DNA of 64,000 nt from a virus (taxonomy: Duplodnaviria; Heunggongvirae; Uroviricota; Caudoviricetes). Position numbers and translations under genes: made by a program. The notes under the pieces were generated by a model. It was not told where the DNA came from. It made no database searches and was given only the letters and a program-made list of their open reading frames with translations. The stretch spans positions 43,394 to 107,393 of the IMG/VR virus record IMGVR_UViG_3300028805_000051; one strand, written 5' to 3'. Positions 2 through 46,847 of the stretch are shown here, in pieces (the first letter of the stretch is position 1; every line of letters starts with the position of its first letter).

Positions 2-118
2 ATTGAAATATTGAAAAATCTTGAAAATGAACCATTAAAATCAAAATGGGTACATATTTATGATACTTATGGTTCTGACTATATTACATACACAATTACT
101 AAACAAGAAATAAAATGA
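2..118 (+). CDS. 3' end of a hypothetical protein (truncated by window start)
   Basis: Open frame IEILKNLENEPLKSKWVHIYDTYGSDYITYTITKQEIK*; its TGA overlaps the thyX ATG (ATGA at 115-118). Confidence 0.6.
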   Translation: MEILKNLENEPLKSKWVHIYDTYGSDYITYTITKQEIK

Positions 119-1113
119 AATTCTTAGAACCTGTAACCCAAATAATCCAACAACCAGAAGGATTAGATGGGATATATAAACAAATTGAATATGTAGGAAG
201 AAGTTGCTGGATGTCTCAACATATGATAAAAGAAGATTCAGCAACTTCTTTTGTACATAATTTACAAGAAAATGGACATACTGCTCCTTTTGAACACGGT
301 ACTGTCTATTTAAAATGTTATGGGTCTGAAGATGAACTTAAAAAATATGCTAAAAATCCTTATTCTAGATATATTAGAATATACGATCATAAAGAAGTTT
401 GTCAAGGAGATGTAGACTACTATGCAACTGAATATGTCACAACTAATTATAGAGTAATCATAGAAAATAATTGGTTTGATGATTTACAGTATATTGTTCC
501 GTTTGATAAAGAACATCATGTTCCTAGAATAACTTTCCATTTTGTTTGTCAAAGAGCTATATCTGCTGAATTTAATAGACATCGACATAATTCACCAATG
601 GAGTCTAGTTCTAGGTATTGTAATTTTTCTGGGGATCGATTTGGTAGAGAAATTACAATATGTGTATCTGACTGGGTAATTAAAGAAGCTGAACAAAATA
701 TTAAACCTATTGGATTTAGACATATTAAAGGAATTGATGCTTTAAGCGAATGTAACAAAGGTCTTGAACAATATTGTTATGAAATTGCTAATGGTTATGA
801 TGTGGCCAATATGAACAAGATTGATTATTGGTTATTTGCTAATTTAGCCTGTGAACATGCTTATATGAATATGATAAGACTTGGAGCTAAAGCTGAAGAG
901 GCAAGAGAGGTTTTACCATTAGATCTTAAAACAGAATTATATCATACAGCATTTTTAGACGATTGGTTACATTTCTGTTCTTTAAGAGCTTGGAAGAGTA
1001 AAGGTAATAATCCACATCCTGAAGCAAAAAGATTGGGTATTGCAGTATTTGAAGGACTGAAATATTTAGGTTTTGTTACTGATGATTTTAGAAAAGATAG
1101 AGAAATAGAATGA
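115..1113 (+). CDS. thyX: Flavin-dependent thymidylate synthase ThyX
   Basis: ThyX signature RHRxxSxxxxSxR (EFNRHRHNSPMESSSRY), plus EEAREVLP and HPEA C-terminal motifs. Confidence 0.92.
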   Translation: MKFLEPVTQIIQQPEGLDGIYKQIEYVGRSCWMSQHMIKEDSATSFVHNLQENGHTAPFEHGTVYLKCYGSEDELKKYAKNPYSRYIRIYDHKEVCQGDVDYYATEYVTTNYRVIIENNWFDDLQYIVPFDKEHHVPRITFHFVCQRAISAEFNRHRHNSPMESSSRYCNFSGDRFGREITICVSDWVIKEAEQNIKPIGFRHIKGIDALSECNKGLEQYCYEIANGYDVANMNKIDYWLFANLACEHAYMNMIRLGAKAEEAREVLPLDLKTELYHTAFLDDWLHFCSLRAWKSKGNNPHPEAKRLGIAVFEGLKYLGFVTDDFRKDREIE

Positions 1114-1949
1114 AATTTTTAAAAATAATTGAATCTAGTATCTTATGTTTGAGGTTTCCATTTTTATACCCAAGAAATAGGTTTTCTGGTTTACATTATA
1201 CTAACTGGAAAATGTTTAATTTTGTGGGTAATTGGAAATCTCAAACTTATGATATTATATGGTTCCAACCAACAGCAGAAAAGAAAGGTTGGTCTATAAT
1301 AACTCAAAGAATTAATGATTTCAGAGAGTATACAATTTTAATAAAAGACAATAAAGTATTTATTAAAAATAATAAAAAAGTTATTTGGGAAAAACCATTT
1401 TCATACTTTGGAGAAGGAGAAATTAAAGGGATAACCAAAAATGATGATAATAAACTTTGCTTAGTTGTTTCTGAAGATTTTAAAAGAAATGAAAATAGTC
1501 AATGGTTAATCACTATTATCCATTCAAAATGGTTATATAAATTATGTAATCTTGTAGATTGGATTCATAAATATCCAGTACAATGGTTACACCTTATTCC
1601 AACATTTACTGAATTGGATGCAATGGAAACTGGTTGGAAAAATGCATTTGGAATCCAAATGTGTAAAGAAATTAAAATTGCTTTAAAGAAAAATAATTGT
1701 TTAAGGAAGTATAGAATTACACAAATTAAAGAAAAATATGGTTCATTAAGATGGTATGATACTGGAGCACCAGAAGAAGTTTATAAAATCATATCTAAAT
1801 ATGAAAAAATTTCTACTAAAACTTGCATAATTTGTGGAAAACCTGCTAAATATATTTCCAAAGGTTGGGTAAGTCCTTACTGTGAAAACTGTATTGGTAA
1901 TAGAAATTATACTAAAATAGGAGAAGACAATTATGATGAAATGGTATGA
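1110..1949 (+). CDS. Conserved phage hypothetical protein with C-terminal Zn-ribbon-like CxxC motifs
   Basis: 279-aa ORF; QIKEKYGSLRWY...TCIICGKP...PYCENC resembles a widespread phage hypothetical family; ATGA overlap with thyX. Confidence 0.75.
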   Translation: MKFLKIIESSILCLRFPFLYPRNRFSGLHYTNWKMFNFVGNWKSQTYDIIWFQPTAEKKGWSIITQRINDFREYTILIKDNKVFIKNNKKVIWEKPFSYFGEGEIKGITKNDDNKLCLVVSEDFKRNENSQWLITIIHSKWLYKLCNLVDWIHKYPVQWLHLIPTFTELDAMETGWKNAFGIQMCKEIKIALKKNNCLRKYRITQIKEKYGSLRWYDTGAPEEVYKIISKYEKISTKTCIICGKPAKYISKGWVSPYCENCIGNRNYTKIGEDNYDEMV

Positions 1950-2193
1950 TGGAAAAAATGGATTTCTAGTTACTAAAGTTATAGTGGAATATTCACAACC
2001 TGGAGATGGTTGTGAATCCTGTGATAATGAACAAGTTCTTAGACTTGAAGCAATGGACAATGGAGTTGCTCCATTTATTCGTATAAGTACTCCTACCGGA
2101 TATTTTTCTATTGCAGATTTAGATGACCTAAAACCAATATTTGAAGATTTTAAAGAAAAAGTAAATTATGAAGAAAAAAATAGTTGCAATTAG
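1933..2193 (+). CDS. Hypothetical protein
   Basis: 86-aa ORF packed between neighbours; ends TAG-TGA (2191-2196), so it terminates in either genetic code. Confidence 0.65.
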   Translation: MMKWYDGKNGFLVTKVIVEYSQPGDGCESCDNEQVLRLEAMDNGVAPFIRISTPTGYFSIADLDDLKPIFEDFKEKVNYEEKNSCN

Positions 2194-2848
2194 TGATTTA
2201 CATGGAAATCTCCCAATGGATCTTCCAGAAGGAGATATTTTATGTATTTGTGGAGATATATTTCCACTAGATATCCAAACTCAAATTTTAAAATGTGATG
2301 ATTGGTTAAACGATGTGTTTATTCCCTGGACTATAGAATTGCCTTATGAAGAAATTATTTTATTAGCAGGCAATCACGATTTTTATTTTGAAGAAGCAGC
2401 TCCGGTAGATACTTTTTTAACATTTGATCATACTAAAATTACTTATTTACGTGACTCTTGGGTTACTATATATGGAATCAAGTTTTATGGTACACCTTGG
2501 TGTCATAAATTTGGAAATTGGGCATTTATGGAAAATGATGCAACTTTGGAGTCTATATTTAAACGTATTCCAGAAGATGTTGACTTTCTTTTAACTCATG
2601 ATGCTCCTTATGGAACTAGTGATATTTGTATGCAAAATGTATATTGGAATAACGGAGACCATATTGGTTCTAAACCATTAAGAGATGCTGTTATTGAAAA
2701 GAAACCAAAATATATGTTGCATGGACATCTTCATTCAACTAATCACGATGAAGAAATTTTAAATGAAACTAAGGTTTATAATGTAAGTATTCTTGATGAA
2801 AGATATGAAGTTGCATATTCTCCTTTAATTATAGAATTTGATAAATGA
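2168..2848 (+). CDS. Calcineurin-like metallophosphoesterase
   Basis: Motifs SDLHG, CGD, GNHD, THDAP and GHLH occur in the canonical order. Confidence 0.9.
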   Translation: MKKKIVAISDLHGNLPMDLPEGDILCICGDIFPLDIQTQILKCDDWLNDVFIPWTIELPYEEIILLAGNHDFYFEEAAPVDTFLTFDHTKITYLRDSWVTIYGIKFYGTPWCHKFGNWAFMENDATLESIFKRIPEDVDFLLTHDAPYGTSDICMQNVYWNNGDHIGSKPLRDAVIEKKPKYMLHGHLHSTNHDEEILNETKVYNVSILDERYEVAYSPLIIEFDK

Positions 2849-2994
2849 AAGAATTACTTCGAAAAACTATTATACGTTGGTTTGTATGTATACTATGGGA
2901 GGGAAAGCATGATTATCATAAAATATCTCCCATGGATATACATTATCGTTATTTAGCTGAATGCAAAAGATGCCATAAGCAAAAGGTGTTTTAA
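2845..2994 (+). CDS. Small Cys/His-rich hypothetical protein (49 aa, not in the ORF track)
   Basis: MKELLRKTIIRWFVCILWEGKHDYHKISPMDIHYRYLAECKRCHKQKVF*; ATGA overlap with the upstream gene; contains CxxC. Confidence 0.55.
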   Translation: MKELLRKTIIRWFVCILWEGKHDYHKISPMDIHYRYLAECKRCHKQKVF

Positions 2995-3044
2995 TATATT
3001 GTTCAAAGTTAGATTTTGTTTATTTTAACATTTAAAAAAATAAT

Positions 3045-3677
3045 ATGATAATTGGAATATCTGGAAAAATTGGTTCTGGAAAGAACGAAGTTGCAGATAT
3101 GATATCTTATATTGGCTTTAGAAATGCTGATGGGACTTTTAATCAGTTTAAAGAAGCTCAAGATATAAGAAATACTTTTTTCAAAAATGAAAGATGGGGT
3201 GATGCCGAACGAACATTACCAAATATTCATTCTTTTGCAGCAAATTTAAAGAAATGTTTAGCAGTGTGTACCGGAATAGATTTTCATAAATTAGAAGATC
3301 GAAATGTAAAATCCTCTGAAATTCCTTGGCTAGGTATTTCTTACCGACAACTATTACAACGGTTTGGAGAAGGTGTTAGACTTACTGTAGACAAAAATTT
3401 CTGGGTCAATTCTCTGTTATCTCAATATGAAAAGTCAAATATTTGGATAATTTCTGATGTTCGACATATTGTTGAAGCAGATGCTATTCTTGATAAAGGT
3501 GGTATTTTAGTTAGAGTAAATAGAAATGGGCTTGATACTGATAACCATATAAGTGAAACAAACTTAGATGATTATCAAAAATTTAATTATACGATAGACA
3601 ATAATGGAACTTTAGAAGATTTATTTAACAAATGTAGAAATCTTTTAGAAACTATAGCTAAAGATAAACAAAAATAA
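3045..3677 (+). CDS. Deoxynucleoside monophosphate kinase (T4 gp1-like)
   Basis: N-terminal P-loop IIGISGKIGSGK, then FAANLK, RQLLQRFG, IISDVR and HISE motifs. Confidence 0.85.
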   Translation: MIIGISGKIGSGKNEVADMISYIGFRNADGTFNQFKEAQDIRNTFFKNERWGDAERTLPNIHSFAANLKKCLAVCTGIDFHKLEDRNVKSSEIPWLGISYRQLLQRFGEGVRLTVDKNFWVNSLLSQYEKSNIWIISDVRHIVEADAILDKGGILVRVNRNGLDTDNHISETNLDDYQKFNYTIDNNGTLEDLFNKCRNLLETIAKDKQK

Positions 3678-3740: not shown

Positions 3741-6700
3741 TAATTATCATCTTTTCTTCCGTTATCACCTATAGGTCTGCCTAGTGTATTAATTTTTACA
3801 TAATCTAATACACTTTCCCTAGTTCTACCAACAGCAGCTAACTTTACTAAAGTATCATACATATCAGTATTACCAGAAATACAAGATGATAATCTTTTAA
3901 CAGTATTAGTCGTTGTAGTTATAGAAAATGGAGTCCATTGCATACCTCTACCAAATATAGTATTCATAAAGAAAAAGTCGTCAGTTGATGTTTTTAACAT
4001 AGCTACTGTATTTAACATAGCAGTATTAATTATAGCATCTCCTAAATCTTCATTTCCAACTTCTTTAGTGTAATCTTTTGCAGCTGTTTGCAATGCTGGA
4101 GCAATTAACATTCCAAGTAACAGCATCATTAGTAAATCATACCACCATTGAGATAAATTAGCTCGATAAGCTGTTTTTAAATTTTCATCTGGATTGTTTG
4201 CAAATTCATTATATGCATTAGAAAATGATTTAAATAAAGTTAATACATTTTTATTATCCTCATCTTTAAAATTTTCATATCCAGTTTTTAAAATATTTGA
4301 AAGAGTTACAAATATTCCTTCTTGATACTAGCCCTACCAAACCATAAATGGAGTATTAGTCACTTCTGTAGTTGGATTTCCTTCATCATCTTCATAATAA
4401 TAAATTGGATTTCCTTTATCATCTTTTTCAGAATAATGAACCCATTTACCAGTCATACGAATACCTCCTGGAGCCATAAATTGATTCTTTTTAGATGACC
4501 AGAAAGTATTCATTTGCATAAATAAAGCACCAGCAGTAGTAGATTGAATTAAAGATTTCTTTTCATGCGAATAATATCCATATACCATATCAGCCATAGA
4601 TTTAATACTTTCAGCCTCCAATACTGTATAAGCTCTTGGTAATGGTAATGGATGTTCAACATTTACTACAAAATCTACTAATTCACCATTACTGTTTAAA
4701 TATTTAGCATTTTCATTCTAAAATTGTTTAGCAACTGCTAAATATCTTGCTTTTTGTTTATTAAACTCATTTTTTAAACTTTCTGGAATTTCATTTTCTT
4801 TGCCAGCATATTTAGCAAATATTTCATAACGTTTATCTTTAGTCCAGTCATAATTACCATGTTCATCATGTGCTTCAAAACAACCATCAGCTCTCATATG
4901 GGCACCAAAGATAGTCATTCTATTATAGAAGTCAGGTCTTGAGGCAAAATGGAAAGCAAGATTATTAAAATTAAACATACCAAATTGATTTGGAAGAATT
5001 TTACTACCATAAGTGTTCATATCCATATCATTTATACCATATACTTCATTTAATACTCTTGCTAAGGATTTATTGTTACTAAAATGTCCTAATTCTTTAT
5101 ATATCCAGAAAAAGCTGTCTTTAAAGTTTTTGGCAGAAAATGCTTCAGTTCCGTCTGGATTTTTTATTACTAGCATAATGTCTTTCCATAAACCATCAAT
5201 AGCCTAATATAACTATCTTGGATTAAAAGCTAATGCTAGTTTAGAAGCACCCTACATAAGTTTTCCAGCCATAAATGATAACTAATTCCATTTTGGATCT
5301 TGTATAGACATATTTAGTACTTTAGCAGTAATAAAGTTATGTAAATACTCGATATCCTCAGCAAATTTATCGTTTAAAATAAAACTTTGATATTCTAATT
5401 GATATGCTACAGCTTTTAATACTGGAAATATTTTATTAATATTATCCTTCATTACATAACTAACACAATGTGCTGTAGTTAGGACTTCAAGATTTCTTTC
5501 CCAAAAATCAATACCTCTACCATTAGGGTTACTTTCACTTTTTGGCTCTAATACAGTTTTTCTATATTCTTCATTTTCAAAAGCATCAAAATTACTTGAC
5601 ATTTCCCATAATTCAAAGTTTTTATTTTTTGCTTTTGCCATACGATTTTTTAAAGCCTAATCACCTGTTTGCTTAACAACATCTTCATCAGTTAAAAAAT
5701 CTCTAAAAAATTCTTGAAGATTTTCCTTATTAGGAATTAATTTACTAAATGAATCTTTTATAGCATACCATAAACCTTTATTAGCAATTTTAGAACTAAA
5801 AGAACCTCTCATTAATGGAGCTCTTAAATATTTAAAAGAATCTTCAGAATTTAATAAAAATTCTAAATCCTACATTGTGTGTATCTAATTAGAATATCTC
5901 CTACTATTTATTTGAAATAAACAATATTTTAAATATTCTTTTTCAGTATCAGTCATTGTATGGTCTTTAAATGGATTTTTAAAAATAATATCGTCAGGAT
6001 AATCATCATCATACATATTTTCAAATAAAGAAGCTTCATTTCCAACAGTTTTTGATTTTAAATATCCAAAACTTTTTTCTTTTCTTAATTTTTCTCCAAG
6101 CTCATATAATTTTTTTGTAACAAATTGTACTTCATCTCTAACATTTTGATAACCGGTATTTAATTGTCTACCTACTAAATTTAATAAGTCACTATCCAAC
6201 ATACCAGGATTATCAAGACTGTTAGCACTCCATCCTTTTGTAAAAGCTTCTTTAAGTCCAGATTGATTTAAATACTTATGATGGTCTTGTAATTGTTGTC
6301 TAAAATGTACACCATCTAAAGCACCAATAGCACTATGTATATCAACTAATAATCTATAGGCTTCACTTTTATTTTGATCATTAAGTGTTTCTTGTTTAGT
6401 ATTGTGCTCTAAATTAAAAGTATCAGAAATATCTTGAGCAATTTTAACTAAACCACTTCTTATTGCTACAATATTATCAGTTGGTAACTGATCAAAATCA
6501 CTTAATGCAGAAGTTACTTTTTTGAACCTATGATTTGGTGGATTAGCACATATTTCTTTAATTCTTAATTTTACTAAACTTAAGTAAGAAGCAAATTTAC
6601 TTTTTGTAAGGTTATTCTGCATTGGATGTTTTTTATCCAAATCACATAATTCCTTAAAGTTGTAAATCAGTTCTTCGTTGCTTGCTGTAAAACCTTCATC

Positions 6701-30286: not shown

Positions 30287-32755
30287 TTATTTTTGCATCA
30301 TAAGTTTTCTATAATAAGCATATGCATCTCTATTTGTCTTAAGATGATGATCTAAATTCATAGTCATTAAATCATGAAGCATTCTCTCATACATTGCTCT
30401 CCCATATTCCCCAACTTTTCCACCTCTCTTATAAATAATTGGAACTGGATTTGGTGTTTGTTCTCCAAATATATATCCATATCCAGCATATGGAGTTCCT
30501 GTAGGAGCTAAATGCTCTGTATCATAATGATCTGCAGCTGCTTGTTTAGCCTATTCTAATTGTAATCTTATAATACGTAAATTCTTTTTAGTTTCTTCAT
30601 TACTAGGATTTTCGTAATATGCTTCAGTAAGTGCATCTACTTGAGATTGTAAAGCTCTAACTTTTGAATCATTTTGAATAGTATATAACTTATCTCTGTT
30701 ATAATTTCTTTCAGCATTTAAAGCAGTTCCATATTGTCTAGACATTATATTATTAACATCAAGTGCTCCATTTTTGCTGAATAATTCAGCTAACATATGA
30801 CGTCTTGTATTCCAAAGAGCAACATCTGATTGTCTATTCTTTTCACCGGCTTCGTGACGATATAAATTATTCTTTTGAGCAACTTCGTTTTCTTTATCAA
30901 TACTTGCTCTAGTATCATCAGCTTGTTTACTAATTAAAGGAGTATTTGCTGACATAGCTTGTCTTCGATAATTTATATTATAAGCATGACCTGCACCCTA
31001 ATCAGATGTTCCAGATGCTGCAGTGTTTCCTAAACGATTAAAATCAGCATTATTTTTAGCAATGTGATCTTCTAATGGTTTATCAGTATATTGTTTATAA
31101 TGTTCCATAGGTGGAGATACATGAAAATTACGTATTCCATTCATAATATTATAAACCATCTGATTAGTCTACTTAGCTAAATTAAGCTTTCTATTTTCTA
31201 ACCAAGTAATATATCTATCAGTTGGACTTATATTATATTCTTTTCCTGGGGTGCGTCCTGTTTCTCCATTTTCTGGAATTTCTACATCCTCCGATGTTTT
31301 TGGGTTTCCTAAAGTTCCAGTTAATAGACCACTTCCAACAGTTCCAGTTGTTAAACCAGTATTTTGTGATGTTGCAGATGGATTATTTGTATTAGTGCTA
31401 ACTGGATTGTCTGGATCACTTAATAAATCATTATCATTAAAAAGCAAATTAGTGCCTAATTTCGCTTTTAGTACACCACCTTGTTTATATGAAATATCAG
31501 TTATTTTATTATATTTTAAGTATGAATTTGCTAACCATGTTTGTAAGTTACTATCTTCTGAATTAAAAGCATCTTTTATGGCATTAAAGTTAAGTATATA
31601 TTGATTATTTGATTTAGTTGCGGTAATTAATAATCCTTTATTCCAATTAGGAAGATAATAAGTATTATTAATAAGTTTAGCATTATGTTTTAAATATTCT
31701 GAAACTACTTCAGACCTAAACTCAAAAGGCTAATTTGTATTAGTTATAATTTTTAAGAAATCATCTATAGATAGATTTTTTGCTTTATTAATATTGTCTG
31801 AATCTAATACATTTTCTCTATCATAAAATAAAAGTTGCTAACCATAACTTTGAACCTAATTATTTAAGTACTAAGATAAATGGTTTAACCAATACTTCTT
31901 TTTAGTATCAACTAATGTATTATACTCTTGAGTTCCAAAAGAATGTGGATTTATTCCAGTATTATTTAAATAAGCATTATTTTTATTAGCAGCAATAGCT
32001 TCATCTTTTTCTTCTTGAGTCATATATCGTTCATCAGTGAACATATAATGTGACATCCAAGGAGCAATTTTACCAAGTTTAAAACCTGATACACCATTTG
32101 ATAATGCATTTATTCTATCTAACTCTTTAACTTTATCTTCATCTGATATATCATATTCACCATTATTTAAGGCTTGAGCATATTTTTCAAGTTCTTGTTT
32201 TATAAATCCCTATCTACCAGATGTTGCTCTTTTACCATTATTTAATGGATCATATTGATTTGCCCAAGCTAATAACTATTCAGGATTTTTAGTAGGATCT
32301 TGTTGATTACCTTCTCCAAAAATAGATGTTCCAATTACATTTCTTAAAGTATTAGAATCCCACTCTTTTAAAGATTTGTCTTTTTTAGGAGTTAACTAAT
32401 TAGCTACACCAATTAAATAAGTCTGGACATTAGTATATGGATTAAATCCAACTCTACGACCCGATAAAAATCCACCTTTACCATCAGTTCTTTGACCATT
32501 TCTTTCTTTATAATAATTTTCTTCTTCTGGTATGCCATGAATTTTACCAAACTCTGAAGTTGTATATTTTCCGTCAACTATTCCTTGTAAAACTTCCTAA
32601 AAACTATTCATAAAGTCAGTACGTTCATCACCTTGAAGCATTTGATAATCCATCCATTGATTTGCTTTAGATTGTGCTAAACGTACAAAATCATTTCGAT
32701 CCAAATCCCTGCCAGCAAAATGTATTGTTTTAGGTTTATTATTTTCGTTTGGCAT
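30287..32755 (-). CDS. Putative cargo/internal virion protein (~822 aa, TAG=Gln)
   Basis: Starts MPNENNKPK; track ORFs 31871, 31169 and 30551 are in frame; YKQGG and YKRGG motifs; ends TAA. Confidence 0.75.
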
Positions 32756-32770
32756 AATTATTAATAATAT

Positions 32771-32810
32771 TAAAAAAGGAGATATATAAATTTACTTATA
32801 TACCTCCTTA
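32771..32810 (-). terminator. Intrinsic terminator
   Basis: AAGGAGGTATATAA...TTATATATCTCCTT stem followed by a T-run on the minus strand. Confidence 0.8.
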
Positions 32811-32832
32811 TCAATTGTTTTAATGTAAAAAA

Positions 32833-33159
32833 TTATTTCTTACGATAAGCAAGGCGACCTCCCTTACGATAAACGGGTTCTCCCTGCTCAGCAGGAGCTT
32901 CTGCAGGAGCACCTGCTCCACCCTGTGCTAGTTGTACAAGGGCTGCACAAACTTGAAGTGCCAATTGACCATCATTTGTTTGAACTGCTTGCATAGCAGC
33001 TTGTAAAATTTGTTGCATTGGATCTGCTTGTGCAGGTTCTGCACCTTGAGCTGGTTCAGCTGGAGCTGGTTCAGCAGCTGCTGCTCCACCTTCAGGCATT
33101 GGACCACCTTCTTGGAATCTTTTTACTTCTTTCTCTAATTTACTAAAGTTAACTTTCAT
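32833..33159 (-). CDS. Small Ala/Pro/Gln-rich crAss virion protein (108 aa)
   Basis: Intact ORF with FQEGG near the N-terminus and YRKGG near the C-terminus; contains no TAG. Confidence 0.85.
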   Translation of the reverse strand: MKVNFSKLEKEVKRFQEGGPMPEGGAAAAEPAPAEPAQGAEPAQADPMQQILQAAMQAVQTNDGQLALQVCAALVQLAQGGAGAPAEAPAEQGEPVYRKGGRLAYRKK

Positions 33160-33263: not shown

Positions 33264-33857
33264 TTAATTTTTATCTTTAGATTCAGGTAATTGTACATAT
33301 TCAGGATCTCGTGAATCCTATTTCTTTAACACTTTAAACATATATTTACCTAATCTTTTATAATCAGAATCATTCTTAGAATCATAAGCTTTTTTAGCCT
33401 AACGAATAAGAACTTTTGTTTCTTTTCTACTAACTATTCTTTCACCACCTTTGAGGTTCATTTGAGTAGAACCATCTGGTGCAAGAACTTTCATAACATA
33501 TTCCTTAGTATCGTCAAGAAACTCTAATTCATCTCCTTTTTTGATTCCAGAGTTAGCATTAACTTCAACAACATATAATGTTTCAGGTTCTCCTATTAGA
33601 GTTTCATCATTAGGTTCACGAGTAACAACTTTAGTTACTTCTAAATCAGAATTAATAAAAATCTAATCTAGTGATATCTATGTGTTATACATCCACATTT
33701 CATGGTTTCCCTCTTCTCCAAAATCAAAAAGCATTCCTTCATGTTCACCAAGATTAGTAATACCCATTAAACCTTTTCTTAATTCATTTTGAGTTGATGC
33801 TATATCTAAAGTGTATTCTTTATTTCCTAATTTAACCTTTGTTTTCTCCATTTTCAT
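33264..33857 (-). CDS. DUF192-family protein (TAG=Gln)
   Basis: DIASTQNELRKGLMG...EGMLFDF...MWMYNTQ(TAG)ISLDQ(TAG)IFI...YVVEVNANSGI matches the DUF192 pattern; continues to TAA at 33264. Confidence 0.8.
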
Positions 33858-34062
33858 TTTTTCTAAAAGCACCTGTGACACTGTCAACTCCTAATAATGC
33901 AACTATTGCACAAATTAGAAATTCTGTAAAATCTGGAGCTTGTTTTGTTTCAAATAAGATTACTAAAAAACCTATTAATAATACAATCCAACCAAGTATA
34001 CCACAAACTCTTTTACTAGATAATCTTCCTTTAGGGGTTTCAATTATTTGCCAAAGTCTCAT
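33832..34062 (-). CDS. Holin-like small membrane protein
   Basis: 76 aa, SSKRVCG followed by two hydrophobic helices and a charged C-terminus; ATGA overlap with the upstream gene. Confidence 0.6.
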   Translation of the reverse strand: MRLWQIIETPKGRLSSKRVCGILGWIVLLIGFLVILFETKQAPDFTEFLICAIVALLGVDSVTGAFRKNENGENKG

Positions 34063-40482: not shown

Positions 40483-43400
40483 TTAAAATGATTCAGTTGT
40501 ATATGTTGTTTTAAATAAATCTAAATTAATAACATGATCCTTAGCTAAATCTGTAATCTTTCTTCTAGAAAATCTCCAATCACCATGCTTTCCTTTCATA
40601 GCATTTCCTAACCACCAATTAGTTGATGTTATTAAGGCATTAGTGTTGTTCACAACAATGTTCTTTCTATTATGCTAATTATCAGTTTCAATTTGTAATT
40701 TATTATTTCTTAACGCCTAAGCAATATTATATCCCCATTGTCCAAGCGTATAACTATATGCATAATTTAATGCGTTATCTGGATCCTAACAATCTATTAA
40801 TATAGGTTTTCCATTTTCATCATCTCTTACATAAAGATAAGCGTGATCAGGTTGATCAAATTTAGCATTTGACATTTCATAATGTCCTCTAACCACTCCA
40901 GTACTATATTTCACAGTATATGATATTGGAGCCATAACATTACTTGCAGTATCTTCTGGTATACGTTGCTGTGTACCATAATTATTAATAGTGTATGTTG
41001 TAGGAATAGGATGATCAAGTAAATATTCTTCAGGAGTATCAAGAACATAATATGTAGTTACTCCATTAGTAACAACTGATGAATTATTTTCATCCCCAGA
41101 TGCATAAATTCTACTTCCAATAACTCTTGTGCCAATATGAATCTTACCATCTGTAGCAACCTTACCAAAATCAAAGTATGATCCCACACTCTTCATACCA
41201 TTTTCCCAAACAGTAACACTATTACCAGTTACAACACCATTAATAAGTCTTCTACCAGTTATAGTAGCAAGGCTACCTTCTTTTGCTTCATTAAAGTCTA
41301 AAGTATGTTTTTCGTAAGGCTCATAAGTACCATTGCGAGAGGGGTCAGAAAGGTTTATGCAGATGTCGTGGTTGTATGATGTAACATCTTTAGGTGTATG
41401 TGTATTAAATGCTATATAATAAGTGTTAGGACCAGTTATAAAAACAGAATTAATAGATGCGGAAAAAGAACCAATTAAAGTCTTATTTACATCATAAGCA
41501 TATTTGTCGAGACCATTAGATGCTTTTAGATAATATGCTGTGTTAGGGGATACAGGTATTAAGTTTTTTGAGCAAATAAATTGTACATGGCTAACAACTT
41601 CACCTGTTGTATCGGAAATATATCCATTCTCCCACTCTTCGTCCCACTGATTAAACCCGGTAGTCTCAATACCACTTGCAGCATTGTTAATAAGAATAGG
41701 AGTAGGAGTATAGTCATAGTAGTCAAGAGGATAAAGCGCTTCAAATTCTGCAACAGTTGAAGGTTCATTACCGGCACCGAACATCTTAGTTAAATCAAAA
41801 ACATTCTGTTTATTCTTGACATAGTATTTGTGTCCGTTAGGGTCTGTAATGATTACATCACTTGTTTTAGCTATTGCCCTGACTGAAAAACCGCTGTACC
41901 GACCGTAGTTGTTCCGCGGACCGACACCACCAGAGCTAAAGCTCAGACCTCTGGCATGACGAGCAGAGTAGAACGAACTAGACCAGTAATAGCCATTCGA
42001 GTCGTGATTGCCCCACGAAGAACCATTGCCGCTGCCTGAGGCAGAGAAGAAGAGGCGGTTGCCGTTGGTCTTGCTCTGGAGGTAGAGGCCTACAATGCCG
42101 TTTACGGTCACTCTTTTATCTGTTGTATCTGATGGAATTTCAACACCATCAGCATTAATAAAAATACAATTATTAACCAGTTCTTGAAAATCCGCAGACT
42201 GAGGTATATACCACGGTGCCCCAAGATTTGCTCGGGCAGCATCATAGGTCTCTCCCACAGGTATATTAGTAGTTAGTCCTGCACCAGCAGTATCTCCGTA
42301 AGGCTGTCCATCATACCAAGGTTCTTGACTATTAGCACTGCCCCAGTTATAGTCAAAAGCAGAAGTACTGATAGGATTGTGTCCTTCAATATTACCCCAA
42401 GAAAAGAATGAACCTTCATATTGAAATGGACTTGCAGCAAACTTATTAGGTTGAGTAACATCAATATTGGATGTAGCCCAAAGGTTACCACTAGGAAGAC
42501 CCATATCAACAAAAGTTCCTTCGCCTAGCAATTGATTCCATACTATAGTGTTACCTTTGAGAGTGCCTATCTGTGCAGTACCTGTACTATTAATATTACC
42601 AGTTTTACAAAATGTATACTCTGTTGGTACTGGATTATTGTATTCAATTGAAGGTAATACTAATTTAACTTTTTTAGCTTCAGTAACTAAACGTTGTCCA
42701 CTTCCATCAAATATGATTGCACAAGAATCTAATACAGGAACATTAGTGTCTAAAAATTGTGCATTTTTTACACTCTAATCTGGACAACTATAAGAATCTG
42801 TATAATTTTGATCAAATGATTTATCAATAAGTTTAAACTTTGGAAGATATAATGATTTATCGTCAAATGATACTTTATTTTTTATTACAGTTCCAGTATT
42901 ATATGCATTATAGTTTACATCATTAATAACTGGATATGCATTATTTGTTGTAATATTTACATTGTAAGAAGTATTTACTGAATAGTTATTAGTATACACA
43001 AATTTACTTATTTCATTACTACCTATCCAATAATCATAGTTTACATTCTAATCTGGTTGTTGAACATAAATACTATTGAAATTTCTTACAATATCAACTA
43101 ATAGATCTTTTCTAGATAAATAAAATGTTTTTAATATATAAGGATAACCATTTTTATCTAACATTATTGGAATACAATAAGTGCTAATTCCTGCCTCATG
43201 TGATGTTTCAGATGTAGATAAATTACTCCAGTCATTTACAATACCATACCATAATAAGAATGTAGGACTACCTATATTTGAAGTAATAGCCTCAAGATTC
43301 TATTTTACTGTAGCCCATTGTGCTGGATTTGTTTTTAGTTGATGTGCTAAATATGAAATTTTCTACCATCCATTTATATTTAATAACGTTCCACTCTTAA

Positions 43401-45831
43401 GAGAAGCTTCTGAGTTGTTATCAATTGGCGTAACTAAATTTGGAATACCTTCCATTATTCCAATATACTAATCTGCTCTTCTCTAGTGCCATTCAGTTCC
43501 ATATGTATCACCCCACCATTTTCTACAATTTAATGCATAATTAAACCAATATTGTGGATAAATTTCAGAAATTTCTGCATTTAACTAAGCACCACTACTA
43601 TTAGTTTTAATAGAACTTAATGGTCCTAATACATTTTCAAGCTATCTTCGTCCTAGTTCACTATAATGTTTTGGCATATATGGTATAAAAGCTGGCATAA
43701 TTGTATTCATAGTAAATTTATAATCATTTACTGTTTCTCCAGTAGCATTTGGATTTTTTGCTAATTTAGAGAATAACTATGAGTATAATTTATAATTAAT
43801 TGTTAAATTATTATTAGTTACATTATACCATACTTTATTTTTTCCAGACTATGGTTCCTAACTAGGAATTGATTCATTATCAACTGATGGAACAGTATCA
43901 TCAATTAATTCTCCTGTCCTAGAAATTTCAGTTGAGTATTTAATATCATTATTGTAAGTTACATTATTTGGAGTAAAACTTAAACCAAATGGAAAACCAT
44001 AATTTTCATTTTCACTAGTTGGAATACTTGTTTCTATATTATGTTTATATACAGCAGATCCAGTTTTTACAGTTTCATATTTTATTCTTGCAGTTTCAAT
44101 ATTTAAAGGTGGCTCAGTTAAAATGTTAGTTGCATTACTATCAGAACTAATACTTTCAGATGAATAATCAACTATTTTATTTCTAATAATATTTGCTTCC
44201 CAGTCTATATCAAATACTTTCTATGTAATTGTAGCAGGAATTTCTGGAGTAGGGTTTGTTGTATCTGGATTATCTTGGATAATAATCATATTATCAAAAC
44301 TTTCCAAATATAATTTATTTGTAAATGTACTAGTTATAACTGCATACCAATCACTAGTATAACGTTTTTCTGAAGGTTGTAAATTTGCTACATGTTTTTT
44401 AACATTAATATTTATTCTACCAATATAATATTTTCCTTTTTCAATATCATTTTCAAAAGAAATAAATTTAGTATAATTTCCAAAATAATTACTACTGTCT
44501 AAATTAATTTTCTTTATATATGAAGCTGAAGAATCGTAATTGATAAATAAATTTTGTCCTGATGAAGCATATAAATCTTCAATATTAATTAATTCAAGAT
44601 ATAATTCGTCAATTTGATAAATATATTTAGAATTCTGATCAGTATCTATATAAGCTTTTAAACTATAATCAAATACAAACTTATTAGTTGCAAAATCATT
44701 ATAATATCTAAATATAGAATCATCAAAATCAACTTTTCCAGAACCAATAGCTGATATATCAATTACATCAGTTCTTTTGAGTGATTCAACTTTTCCATAA
44801 GTTCCCTCATAATTATATTTTGGATATACTGTATATTCTATAATAGCATCTTTTGGAACAATGTAAGAACCATCATTTTCTGGAGATACTTTAACATTGT
44901 TATTTGTAACAATTATATCATAATCACTTAAACGATTTCCTCTCCAATCATTATTACCAGTCCCATTACCAGTCCATTCTTCCCCATTTTCATTATAAGC
45001 CGCTGGAGTAATTATTAATTTTAAATTACTTGCATCTTCATCAATTGTTTCAGTAGAAACACTAACATTTATATATGCAGGTAATATTAGTTCAGCCTAT
45101 AAATATAATTTTCCACAAATTTTATTTTTATAAATTGAATAATCTGTGTCATCTGGAGAATTATTATGTAAAATTCTAATAAAAGGAGTATGTGCTATAG
45201 CTTTTGCAGTTTCCCAAGCTATTGGAGATTGAGCAGATCCGTCATAAACATCAGAATATTTCTAAGTCATATCAATTAATTCGTTAGAAATATCTATACT
45301 AGTTCCATCAGAATTAATAATTAAAGCACGTAATCTTATATAGTTATAATTGTTTTCATAACTACAAGCCACATTATTATCATAAGTAATGACAAATTTA
45401 TCACCTGTTCGAATAATTTCATCATTTTCTCCTATTAATAATACTCTATCTGTAGTATTTTTAATAAAACCTGCTTCAATAAAATCTGTTAAAAGTTTTA
45501 ATCCAGTCTATGGAGTTCCAGAATCTTCCTAACTTAAATTTCTTTGAGGAGAAGGAAAACAGCCTATCTAACTTTCTCCTTTTAGTGGATTATATGAAGC
45601 TACATATACTATTCCCCCATGTTCTTTCATTCCTACTGGTACATATCCTTCAGGAAGTTGAGCCTAATCTACTTTAGCATTACCCATATCATTCTAAAGC
45701 ACTAATTCATTACCATTCATAGTAACCATTGTAGCATTTAGTGCACCAGTAAGAGTATGATTATCTATTGCAATAGGATTAGTGTCTAAATTTAGTCCTT
45801 TATCAAACTAATTTGCTCCTTGTTGTCTCAT
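40483..45831 (-). CDS. Muzzle/tail-stabilization-like protein (~1782 aa, TAG=Gln) with an internal DGR-target C-type-lectin-like domain
   Basis: Starts MRQQGANQFDKGLNLDTNP...LQNDMGN...GMKEHGGIVYVASYNP. Track ORFs 42775 and 40786 and the sampled flanks are in frame with only TAG interruptions; TAA at 40483. Internal VDMGLPSGNLWATSNI...YWSSS...GFSVRA domain. Confidence 0.75.
41876..42045 (-). repeat. DGR-type variable repeat (VR); no partner template repeat seen in the window
   Basis: Encodes GSGNGSSWGNHDSNGYYWSSSFYSARHARGLSFSSGGVGPRNNYGRYSGFSVRA; variable positions are NNY codons derivable from AAY; 41881-42120 is 54% GC (129/240, hand count). Confidence 0.75.
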
Positions 45832-46847
45832 ATTAATTCATAATCATTATTAATTACTAAAATATCCTAAAACTTAAGTGGCTCTCTTTCTAAAAATAAT
45901 TCAGCATCTTTAGTTTTAAAGTTCTCATTATAAAATGTAAATCCCATGTCAATTGGGTATGGAACTTTAAAAAAATATCTAAAATTACTTTCAGATAATG
46001 AACAATCTTCCCAAAGTTTATATAAAACAATATTACCAAAGTTATAATGTTTTCTTGGACGACCTCTTTTCTTTTTACTATTTACAAATTCCTTATAACG
46101 TTCATCACTTAAACCAAAATAATAATATCCATCCCAAGGAATTTTCTTACGATTATACATAACTCGTATCTTATTTCGTAATTTTATCTTATAGTAATTG
46201 AAATGTCCTAAAGAATCATTTCTAAGTATACCTATATAAAACCAAAATCCGGAATCTTTGATTAAAACATCACCACCATAAGTATTTACTAAATATAAAG
46301 ATTTCCATCCAAAATTCAAAATTTTCTATAAATCTGAATCAGGAATTAATGGAAACTTTTCTTTTACAGATGAGTAATAATCTTTAATAGTCTTTACTAT
46401 TTTTCCGTAATAAACTCTACCTTCATTTGTGTATTTAGTGATTCTTTCTTTTAATTCTTTATTAACATAAACCTATTTAGCCTTTGGAATATTACGATGG
46501 CCATACATATAGAATTGTAATTGATTAGCTATAAAGTTAGAATCTATGAAATCTACCTCCATAAATTTTCCATTTTTTCTAGCTTTTTTAAATTCTTCAT
46601 CCCGATATGTATGCATCTGTAATGATGTCTTTCTTGATCCAGTTGGAAGCTAAAATTCAACATCATTATCAATTATATCATTAACTATTATTTTTACACA
46701 TTCTCTGAAAACTTTATAACATAATCTTTTCTTATGATTATCTCCATAAAGTCGCTAAAGAGATACTCCATCAATTAAAAGATTCTATGATTTAAAGTTT
46801 TGAAATATTTCATCAAGTTTCCAAGCATATCCTAAAGCATAATTCAT
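45828..46847 (-). CDS. crAss IHF-like/conserved protein (~339 aa, TAG=Gln)
   Basis: Starts MNYALGYAWKLDEIF; KQ(TAG)VYVNKELKERIT and KILNFGWKSLYL motifs; TGA overlaps the next ATG. Confidence 0.65.

Follow-up and report, generated by a model that had tools for sequence, protein, structure and literature searches.

Genetic code of the window and the gene carrying the repeat

The 64,000-nt stretch of DNA from a large rumen phage analysed here (hereafter the window; positions 43,394 to 107,393 of IMG/VR virus record IMGVR_UViG_3300028805_000051) carries, in the middle of a long gene for a probable tail fibre, a variable repeat (VR) of the type produced by diversity-generating retroelements (DGRs). 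The source contig is a single 171,393-bp virus contig (G000) with a CheckV completeness of 94%; it is without terminal repeats and has an open reading frame (ORF) truncated at its 5' end. Under the standard bacterial code (table 11) the window appeared as scattered short ORFs, the VR region falling in one of 581 aa, whereas reading TAG as glutamine increased the long-ORF coverage of the window from 26 kb to 62.6 kb and merged the VR region into one gene of 1,784 aa on the minus strand (40483 to 45837) with 23 in-frame TAG codons. With this code, 465 codons remain 3' of position 41881, in agreement with the original prediction, made from the sequence alone, that the VR is internal and followed by about 460 codons.

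Adenine-specific footprint in the variable repeat

The VR core, 150 nt homologous to DGR template repeats (TRs), was located at 41891 to 42040 on the minus strand. Compared with the closest template, that of locus L033 (JAEEGL014104980.1, a 2.4-kb metagenome contig), the core differed at 20 of 43 adenine sites but at 5 of 107 non-adenine sites (Fisher p = 5.5e-9), the changes per template base being 20/43 for A, 2/39 for C, 3/34 for G, and 0/34 for T. This asymmetry marks the VR (42040 to 41891 in the reading direction) as a genuine product of DGR mutagenic retrohoming, and it confirms against an actual template the adenine-mutagenesis footprint that had been proposed with reference to typical ones. 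The codons named in that proposal (GGC, TAT, TAC, CAT, GGT, AGC, AGC, GGT, TAC, GGT, and AGC, plus CGG) fell exactly on AAY and CAG codons of the family templates. Because the L033 template lies on another contig, the footprint speaks to the origin of the repeat and not to a current pairing.

Private synonymous states were also shared between the L033 template and the window VR, and the GC content at third codon positions (GC3) was 0.66 in the VR as compared with 0.06 to 0.40 in the surrounding codons of the gene. The five non-adenine differences from the L033 TR were all GC-to-AT changes (three G>A and two C>T), two of which alter conserved scaffold residues (R>H and G>D); their direction suggests drift in a genome of 28% GC.

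Absence of a cassette and of homing signals

The lack of a TR, a reverse transcriptase (RT), and a downstream hairpin, noted at the outset for the window, was found to extend over the whole 171 kb by repeat, RT, and fold searches. No TR-like second copy was detected on either strand of the 171,393-bp genome using 60-nt ungapped windows at ≥60% identity or a BLAST-type search. Searches of the genome with Pfam RVT_1 and with the DGR RT protein of L033 yielded no RT, and a custom hidden Markov model of the family RTs, which recovered the RT in five control loci at E < 1e-78, gave a best score of E = 0.18 in the genome. Neither an RT fragment nor an accessory gene beside the target was present in the 171 kb.

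The recognition elements expected 3' of a functional VR were likewise missing. Template homology ends ~10 nt past the last variable codon, and at the position expected for the initiation of mutagenic homing (IMH) sequence (3' junction, 41860 to 41890, minus strand) the template-matching sequence is replaced by fibre coding sequence, with 16 of 25 positions mismatched to the 3' ends of the L033 and L034 TRs. This junction sequence is common to the window phage and the three other RT-less phages described below (L001 to L003). The following 80 nt (41800 to 41880, minus strand) are coding and contain no DGR-type hairpin or cruciform: the DNA fold (-4.8 kcal/mol, z = -0.73) was not significant, as compared with z scores of -6.4, -3.4, and -2.05 at the same position in the cis loci L034, G006, and G004, respectively; L033 itself is also without a hairpin within 80 nt. 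Both IMH and hairpin are required for homing in phage BPP-1 (PMC3240598), and Roux et al. give this requirement as the reason for the C-terminal location of DGR repeats (PMC8144416).

The lectin-like domain and its foreign setting

The VR forms part of a putative C-type-lectin-like domain of the FISUMP / Lcl_C type (residues 1095 to 1335; 41833 to 42555, minus strand), delimited by Pfam, homologues, and a structure model. The ~240-residue domain is 77 to 88% identical to those of L001 to L003, and over 42540 to 42110 the DNA is 97 to 100% identical to L001. The Pfam match to Fib_succ_major (PF09603) was weak (E = 9e-4, below the curated cut-off), and scores for Fib_succ_major and Lcl_C (PF07603) reached 19.6 to 19.9 bits against a gathering cut-off of 33.9, so that the domain falls outside formal Pfam membership; 21 of 41 homologous domains, however, matched each of the two families at E < 0.01, and kinship with them is likely. 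The AlphaFold model was mediocre, with a predicted local distance difference test score (pLDDT) of 63 overall and <50 in the VR. Its top structural matches in a VIA search, all at low Z, were the DGR variable proteins TaqVP (Z 5.2), Mtd (4.3), and TvpA (4.2), followed by the Lcl C-terminal domain (Z 3.8) and C-type lectins, and nearly all of the 39 rows were C-type lectin (CLec) or FGE folds. Foldseek of the domain model against the PDB and a profile search of PDB sequences with the domain returned no match. The C-type-lectin-like fold of the original prediction is thus consistent with sub-threshold Pfam scores and with low-Z matches of a pLDDT-63 model, and we retain it at that strength. The domain is internal in about a fifth of the long homologues sampled. 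One homologue, P0040 (2,263 aa, Logan), has at least two such lectin domains with VR-like tips ~400 and ~200 residues before its end and apparently a third lectin domain at its C-terminus.

The use of TAG sets this part of the gene apart. Between codons 1022 and 1683 (40789 to 42774, minus strand), none of 17 glutamine codons is TAG, as compared with 23 of 41 in the remainder of the gene, and residues 1087 to 1639 (40921 to 42579) align with the fibres of three standard-code phages at 59 to 65% amino acid identity. Codon use and homology mark the module within the TAG-free interval as foreign to the recoded genome. Base composition is also exceptional here: genome-wide GC is 28 to 30%, only a handful of 240-nt windows reach ≥47% GC, and the previously noted contrast between 41881-42120 and the adjoining 42121-42180 was measured at 53.7% versus 28.3%.

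Retroelement-free phages sharing the internal domain

The same domain was found inside fibres of 1,250 to 1,392 aa in three further IMG/VR phages (L001 to L003), whose genomes (G001 to G003) are 83 to 85 kb in length, have 34 to 45% GC, and use the standard code. Neither RT nor TR was detected in G001 to G003, of which G003 is complete with terminal repeats; loci L037 to L039 had no RT within ±10 kb. The VRs of L001 to L003 belong to another template lineage, represented by L034 (Ga0326514_10039711), whose TR is 94 to 98% identical to them at non-adenine sites (15 to 22 adenine and 2 to 7 non-adenine differences). Flanks are nearly identical among the four RT-less phages, while their repeats diverge at positions 1 and 2 of what were once AAY codons. 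In this respect the suggestion that an unvarying repeat would be an inert fossil held only in part: the listed codons do vary between phages (window and L001 to L003), and there was no sign of variation within the source sample.

Shared states at variable sites did not discriminate among histories. L002 and L003 share about half of them, the cis-DGR relatives L034 and G007 a similar fraction, and the window protein and P0010 have 7 of 17 in common while belonging to different template lineages at the DNA level. A 604-nt contig of source run X1 (depth 19.9) also shows this module frame, joined to another upstream sequence; its flanks are 87 to 89% identical to window positions 41818 to 42113, and its 108-nt repeat core has diverged. 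Judged by this alignment, the contig represents a second phage with the same internal-repeat architecture in the probable source sample.

Cassettes and templates in other phages

To seek templates, IMG/VR and JGI metagenomes were scanned for patterns based on the invariant scaffold of the repeat. The VR family was found with a TR and an RT in cis at seven loci: G004, G005, and G006 (all from IMG/VR), L033, L034, and additionally L027 and an L028-type locus. In these conventional cassettes the repeat closes the target gene (...GFAVRPVQ, stop); an accessory ORF, a TR located ~1 kb downstream, and an RT make up the remainder. Five cis VR/TR pairs showed 0 to 3 non-adenine differences each.

An exact cognate template for the window VR was found neither in IMG/VR nor in JGI metagenomes or GTDB genomes. 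An IMG/VR scan with the window-specific non-adenine pattern returned nothing, and one with the shared 3' junction returned only the three known relatives. Templates with a GTCAGGGC-type 3' end were limited in IMG/VR to L028 and L041, neither of which is cognate. L027 and L041, which share their samples with L001 and L002, respectively, were rejected as belonging to other template lineages (13 to 45 non-adenine mismatches). Two pattern scans of GTDB species-representative genomes for the VR/TR family gave no match, so that no host or prophage donor could be named, and the early comparison with Bacteroidales DGR targets drew no match among these genomes; blastn of GenBank phages, with either the gene or the VR as query, returned nothing beyond irrelevant or N-terminal matches; and an exact-protein look-up of the L033 accessory protein retrieved only L033 itself.

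Contig ends that leave the window at 42013 and 42040 in runs X1 and X3 read as DGR templates in reverse complement. Of these template-like ends, one from source run X1 resembles L028, and one from X3 contains the leader that precedes the L033 template. Elements with a DGR cassette therefore occur alongside the window phage or its relatives.

The tract extends beyond the template

The GC-rich tract that contains the VR begins at 42112, 72 nt upstream of the start of template homology at 42040. The intervening block (42041 to 42112, minus strand; 55.6% GC) has 7 of 71 mismatches to the target genes of L034 and G007 (~90% identity), compared with 43 of 61 to templates, and 15 of its 16 adenines are invariant across six sequences. 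Because the block matches target genes and not templates, this part of the tract came from a donor gene and not from template cDNA. The earlier view that the GC-rich end simply marks a fresher VR therefore needs correcting, since the tract starts 5' of any template and matches DGR target genes. Among the three proposals made for the repeat (a remote cassette, targeting in trans, and refreshment by recombination with the VRs of other phages), the last is best supported, given a tract longer than the template and a match to donor genes.

Tracts of varied length were seen in the relatives. In alignment columns, the 5' start lies at ~440 in the window and L001, at ~345 in L002, and at ~220 in L003, in every case upstream of the TR start, and the tracts resemble the L034 and G007 target genes; the donor-like tracts of L002 and L003 thus begin ~95 and ~220 nt further upstream than that of the window. 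In a sister lineage, the 4.5-kb genes of P0011 and P0247 show no difference outside one ~310-nt patch. It starts ~100 nt upstream of the VR, and its differences are not adenine-specific, a pattern that, from the alignment, reads as plain gene conversion. Patch events with visible ends all extended beyond the template. The 4.5-kb fibre genes at L042:9776-14296 and L043:1024-5541, from different samples, are identical apart from a ~310-nt patch over an internal lectin domain, for which one allele is GC-rich and the other AT-ameliorated.

An active DGR and an internal domain occur together at locus L044:694-5685 (Logan SRR32661676), which encodes a 1,096-aa fibre with two lectin-type domains and a cis DGR (a 123-aa ORF, a TR near 4430, and an RT at 4672 to 5685). 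The TR matches only the C-terminal VR, a repeat of another sequence class, with 16 mismatches that all fall on adenines; for the internal FISUMP-type domain there is no template. In the P0012 and P0013 clusters, variation among members is confined to the C-terminal VR. P0256 and P0013 (residues 1061 to 1102) differ only in the C-terminal repeat, P0256 having Asn at ten positions; its repeat is perhaps a near-unmutated, template-like copy, arising either from recent homing with little mutagenesis or from mis-assembly with the TR.

Allele data indicated one dominant state of the window VR. In the probable source run, the exact VR unitig (41818 to 42082) had a depth of 81 as compared with 77 to 104 in the flanks, and one VR allele dominates in the source sample. 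The 581-aa table-11 product formed a singleton cluster among 5.8 billion, with one sequence on two contigs, and P0009, which has the internal domain, was letter-identical on five contigs from at least three samples. L035 and P0005, which had looked like separate copies sharing one VR, were set aside: a match of 100% over 10 kb and 1,246 aa means that they probably represent a single data set, which provides no evidence of stasis. Contigs of runs X3, X4, and X15 stop short of the 3' flank of the VR and are uninformative on variation in close relatives.

Origin of the internal repeat

On balance, the VR is probably a captured and currently static DGR product that has spread by modular recombination. 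The DGR origin of the repeat, the absence of a cis cassette, the donor-gene origin of the GC-rich block at the 5' end, mosaic recombination, and the dominance of one allele are the observations on which we build; the further steps, that the VR core itself arrived by recombination rather than as cDNA and is no longer rewritten, are what these observations would imply. Active diversification in the window phage appears unlikely. Several points weigh against this account, and part of them favour a different one, in which the L033-type DGR of a co-infecting phage (or of a prophage or the host) rewrites the internal VR in trans, at least occasionally, by providing template RNA, RT, and accessory protein. 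The variable codons of the four RT-less phages differ up to the last one, ~10 nt from the common 3' junction, and two template lineages occur within one conserved frame, the window core being L033-like and those of L001 to L003 L034-like. Differences between the window and L001 start at 42046, the template start being at 42040 to 42051, and the flanks are 90 to 100% identical; a replacement limited so closely to the span of the template is the expectation under cDNA homing, whereas recombination needs a 3' crossover in a very short stretch. The L001 core has 2 non-adenine differences from the L034 TR, compared with 1 to 3 in true family VRs, and being as near to its template as these it is recent; L001 also keeps a GC-rich 3' stretch that matches L028-type templates for ~17 nt. 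L033-like and L028-like templates were present in runs with the window phage or relatives, related templates thus occurring in the same or related samples, and in laboratory experiments DGR donors on plasmids rewrite a target carried by a replicating phage (PMC3240598). In addition, the five changes attributed above to drift could be template differences, the exact cognate template not having been found; contigs, from which the allele data were taken, drop rare variants, so that low-level diversification may persist in the source sample; and ~6% of the genome is missing. Rewriting in trans is nevertheless unlikely, although well within consideration, given that the window VR has no matching IMH and no hairpin, differs from its nearest template at five non-adenine sites where cis pairs differ at 0 to 3, and is represented by a single dominant allele in the source sample. 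The databases scanned contained no exactly cognate template, the active cis DGR of L044 leaves the internal domain untouched, and patch events with visible ends all exceed the template. The early suggestion of targeting in trans is accordingly weakened by the missing 3' recognition elements and the lack of any sign of within-sample variation, and keeps only the low probability just given.

A conventional DGR with a remote target, the TR and RT of which would lie in the unassembled ~6% of the genome, was also envisaged originally. The CheckV value of 94%, the 5'-truncated ORF, and the missing terminal repeats leave room for such a cassette, and remote targets are known (PMC5758913, PMC8144416); but none was found in the 171,393 bp, where neither an RT fragment nor a target-adjacent accessory gene occurs, the 3' recognition elements are absent, and the complete genome G003 has the same internal VR with no RT or TR. 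We consider this explanation highly improbable. The notion that the repeat is unrelated to DGRs, being an ordinary FISUMP / Lcl_C domain with loops under positive selection and a coincidental adenine pattern, can draw on the fact that any non-synonymous change at a former AAY codon necessarily affects positions 1 and 2, and on the weakness of the Pfam FISUMP match. It is in practice refuted by the nucleotide match to the L033 TR (102 of 107 non-adenine sites identical, 20 of 43 adenines changed, p = 5.5e-9), by the private synonymous states shared with that template, and by the elevated GC3.

Under capture by recombination, the reading we prefer, the earliest step would have been the in-frame fusion of a lectin-like receptor-binding domain of the DGR-target type into a longer fibre, an event that would have abolished the IMH and hairpin that make up the 3' homing signal. 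Once fused, the module would have spread among unrelated RT-less phages, including the TAG-recoded window phage, in which it would form the TAG-free island. Later patch replacements from DGR-bearing phages may have swapped VR-containing tracts of varied length; the VR at 42040 to 41891 would thus have been written in another phage with a full cassette (target, accessory gene, TR, and RT) and would have entered the window genome within a target-gene segment via homologous recombination. RT-less phages would in this manner gain second-hand receptor-binding diversity, and the window VR would at present be a fixed allele drifting slowly towards AT.

Comparison with known systems

The window VR resembles the BPP-1 system (mtd-avd-TR-brt; Guo et al. 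2011, PMC3240598) in its putative lectin-fold receptor-binding domain, its differences at template adenines, its AAY variable sites, and its probable tail-fibre-type protein. Unlike BPP-1, the window genome is devoid of a TR, an RT, and an accessory gene; its VR, with 465 codons behind it, is internal and has neither an IMH match nor a hairpin; and the nearest template is on the contig of another phage. The ruminant-gut cis cassettes (L033, L034, and G004 to G006) belong to the same VR/TR family and have the same lectin-like domain upstream, the L033 TR being 95% identical to the window VR at non-adenine sites. In contrast to the window gene, their VR ends the protein (...VRPVQ or VRPVK, stop) and is followed by the accessory ORF, TR, and RT; their contigs have 37 to 58% GC, compared with 28% in the window genome, and use the standard code.

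Orphan repeats as such are already known. In alpha crAss-like phages, a VR was found in 80 genomes and a TR in only 30, and 73% had incomplete cassettes; Morozova et al. (2020, PMC7290462) question whether such VRs still work. These incomplete cassettes (see also PMC11054128 and PMC12386605) resemble the window in being gut-phage VRs that outlast the cassette, but they decayed where they stood, their RT and target genes being truncated and their VR C-terminal, whereas the window has no cassette remnant, its VR is embedded in a longer gene, and the module occurs in unrelated phages; we make no claim of Crassvirales membership. The remote-target DGRs of Treponema, Legionella, and cyanobacteria (Wu et al. 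2018, PMC5758913) similarly have a VR far from the RT and TR, but there the cassette resides in the same genome as its target and the matching IMH is retained; the window phage shows neither feature. What is unusual here is that the internal position is common to at least four unrelated RT-less phages, that the nearest templates are located on the contigs of other phages, and that the module is a TAG-free island in a recoded genome.

DGR surveys count only RT-adjacent VRs, as stated in PMC8144416, and RT-less carriers of DGR-made sequence are therefore invisible to them. At least four unrelated ruminant-gut phages without a retroelement have this lectin module in common, with tips that DGRs have written differently, and our results suggest that receptor-binding diversity made by DGRs passes through modular exchange into the wider gene pool of phages. 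In that case, the host range of RT-less phages may vary in part according to the DGR phages around them. If the repeat is a captured relic, the outcome is a useful annotation rule and no new mechanism. Should the receptor-binding tip of retroelement-free phages instead be rewritten in trans by the DGR of a co-infecting phage, which we hold to be doubtful, the DGR of one phage would be a shared resource, or a liability, for fibres with a compatible internal VR, and rewriting would even extend from donors with the standard genetic code to a recipient in which TAG is recoded. The window gene offers a clean natural test bed for whether an internal VR lacking IMH and hairpin can still serve as a homing target.

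Structural block and other features of the window

Neighbours of the 1,784-aa gene matched the PHROG major head family (E = 1.5e-8) and virion structural families, placing the gene in a structural block; homologues P0002 to P0004 are long and fibre-like, and homologue P0015 has Phage_tail_C. From these neighbours and homologues, on which the tail assignment rests, the structural protein is probably a tail fibre. No Pfam or PHROGs match was obtained for the remaining segments of P0001, P0002, and P0004, nor for the accessory ORFs of the DGRs.

TAG is a sense codon in late and structural genes across the 171-kb genome, and when it is left open the minus strand contains ORFs of 3,381, 2,825, 1,784, 1,651, 1,613, and 1,531 aa. 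Four plus-strand ORFs at 103 to 3677 are intact under the standard code. Another of the rare patches of ≥47% GC lies at 32824 to 33143, between the ORFs at 30287 to 32791 and 33264 to 33914, and is not a tRNA.

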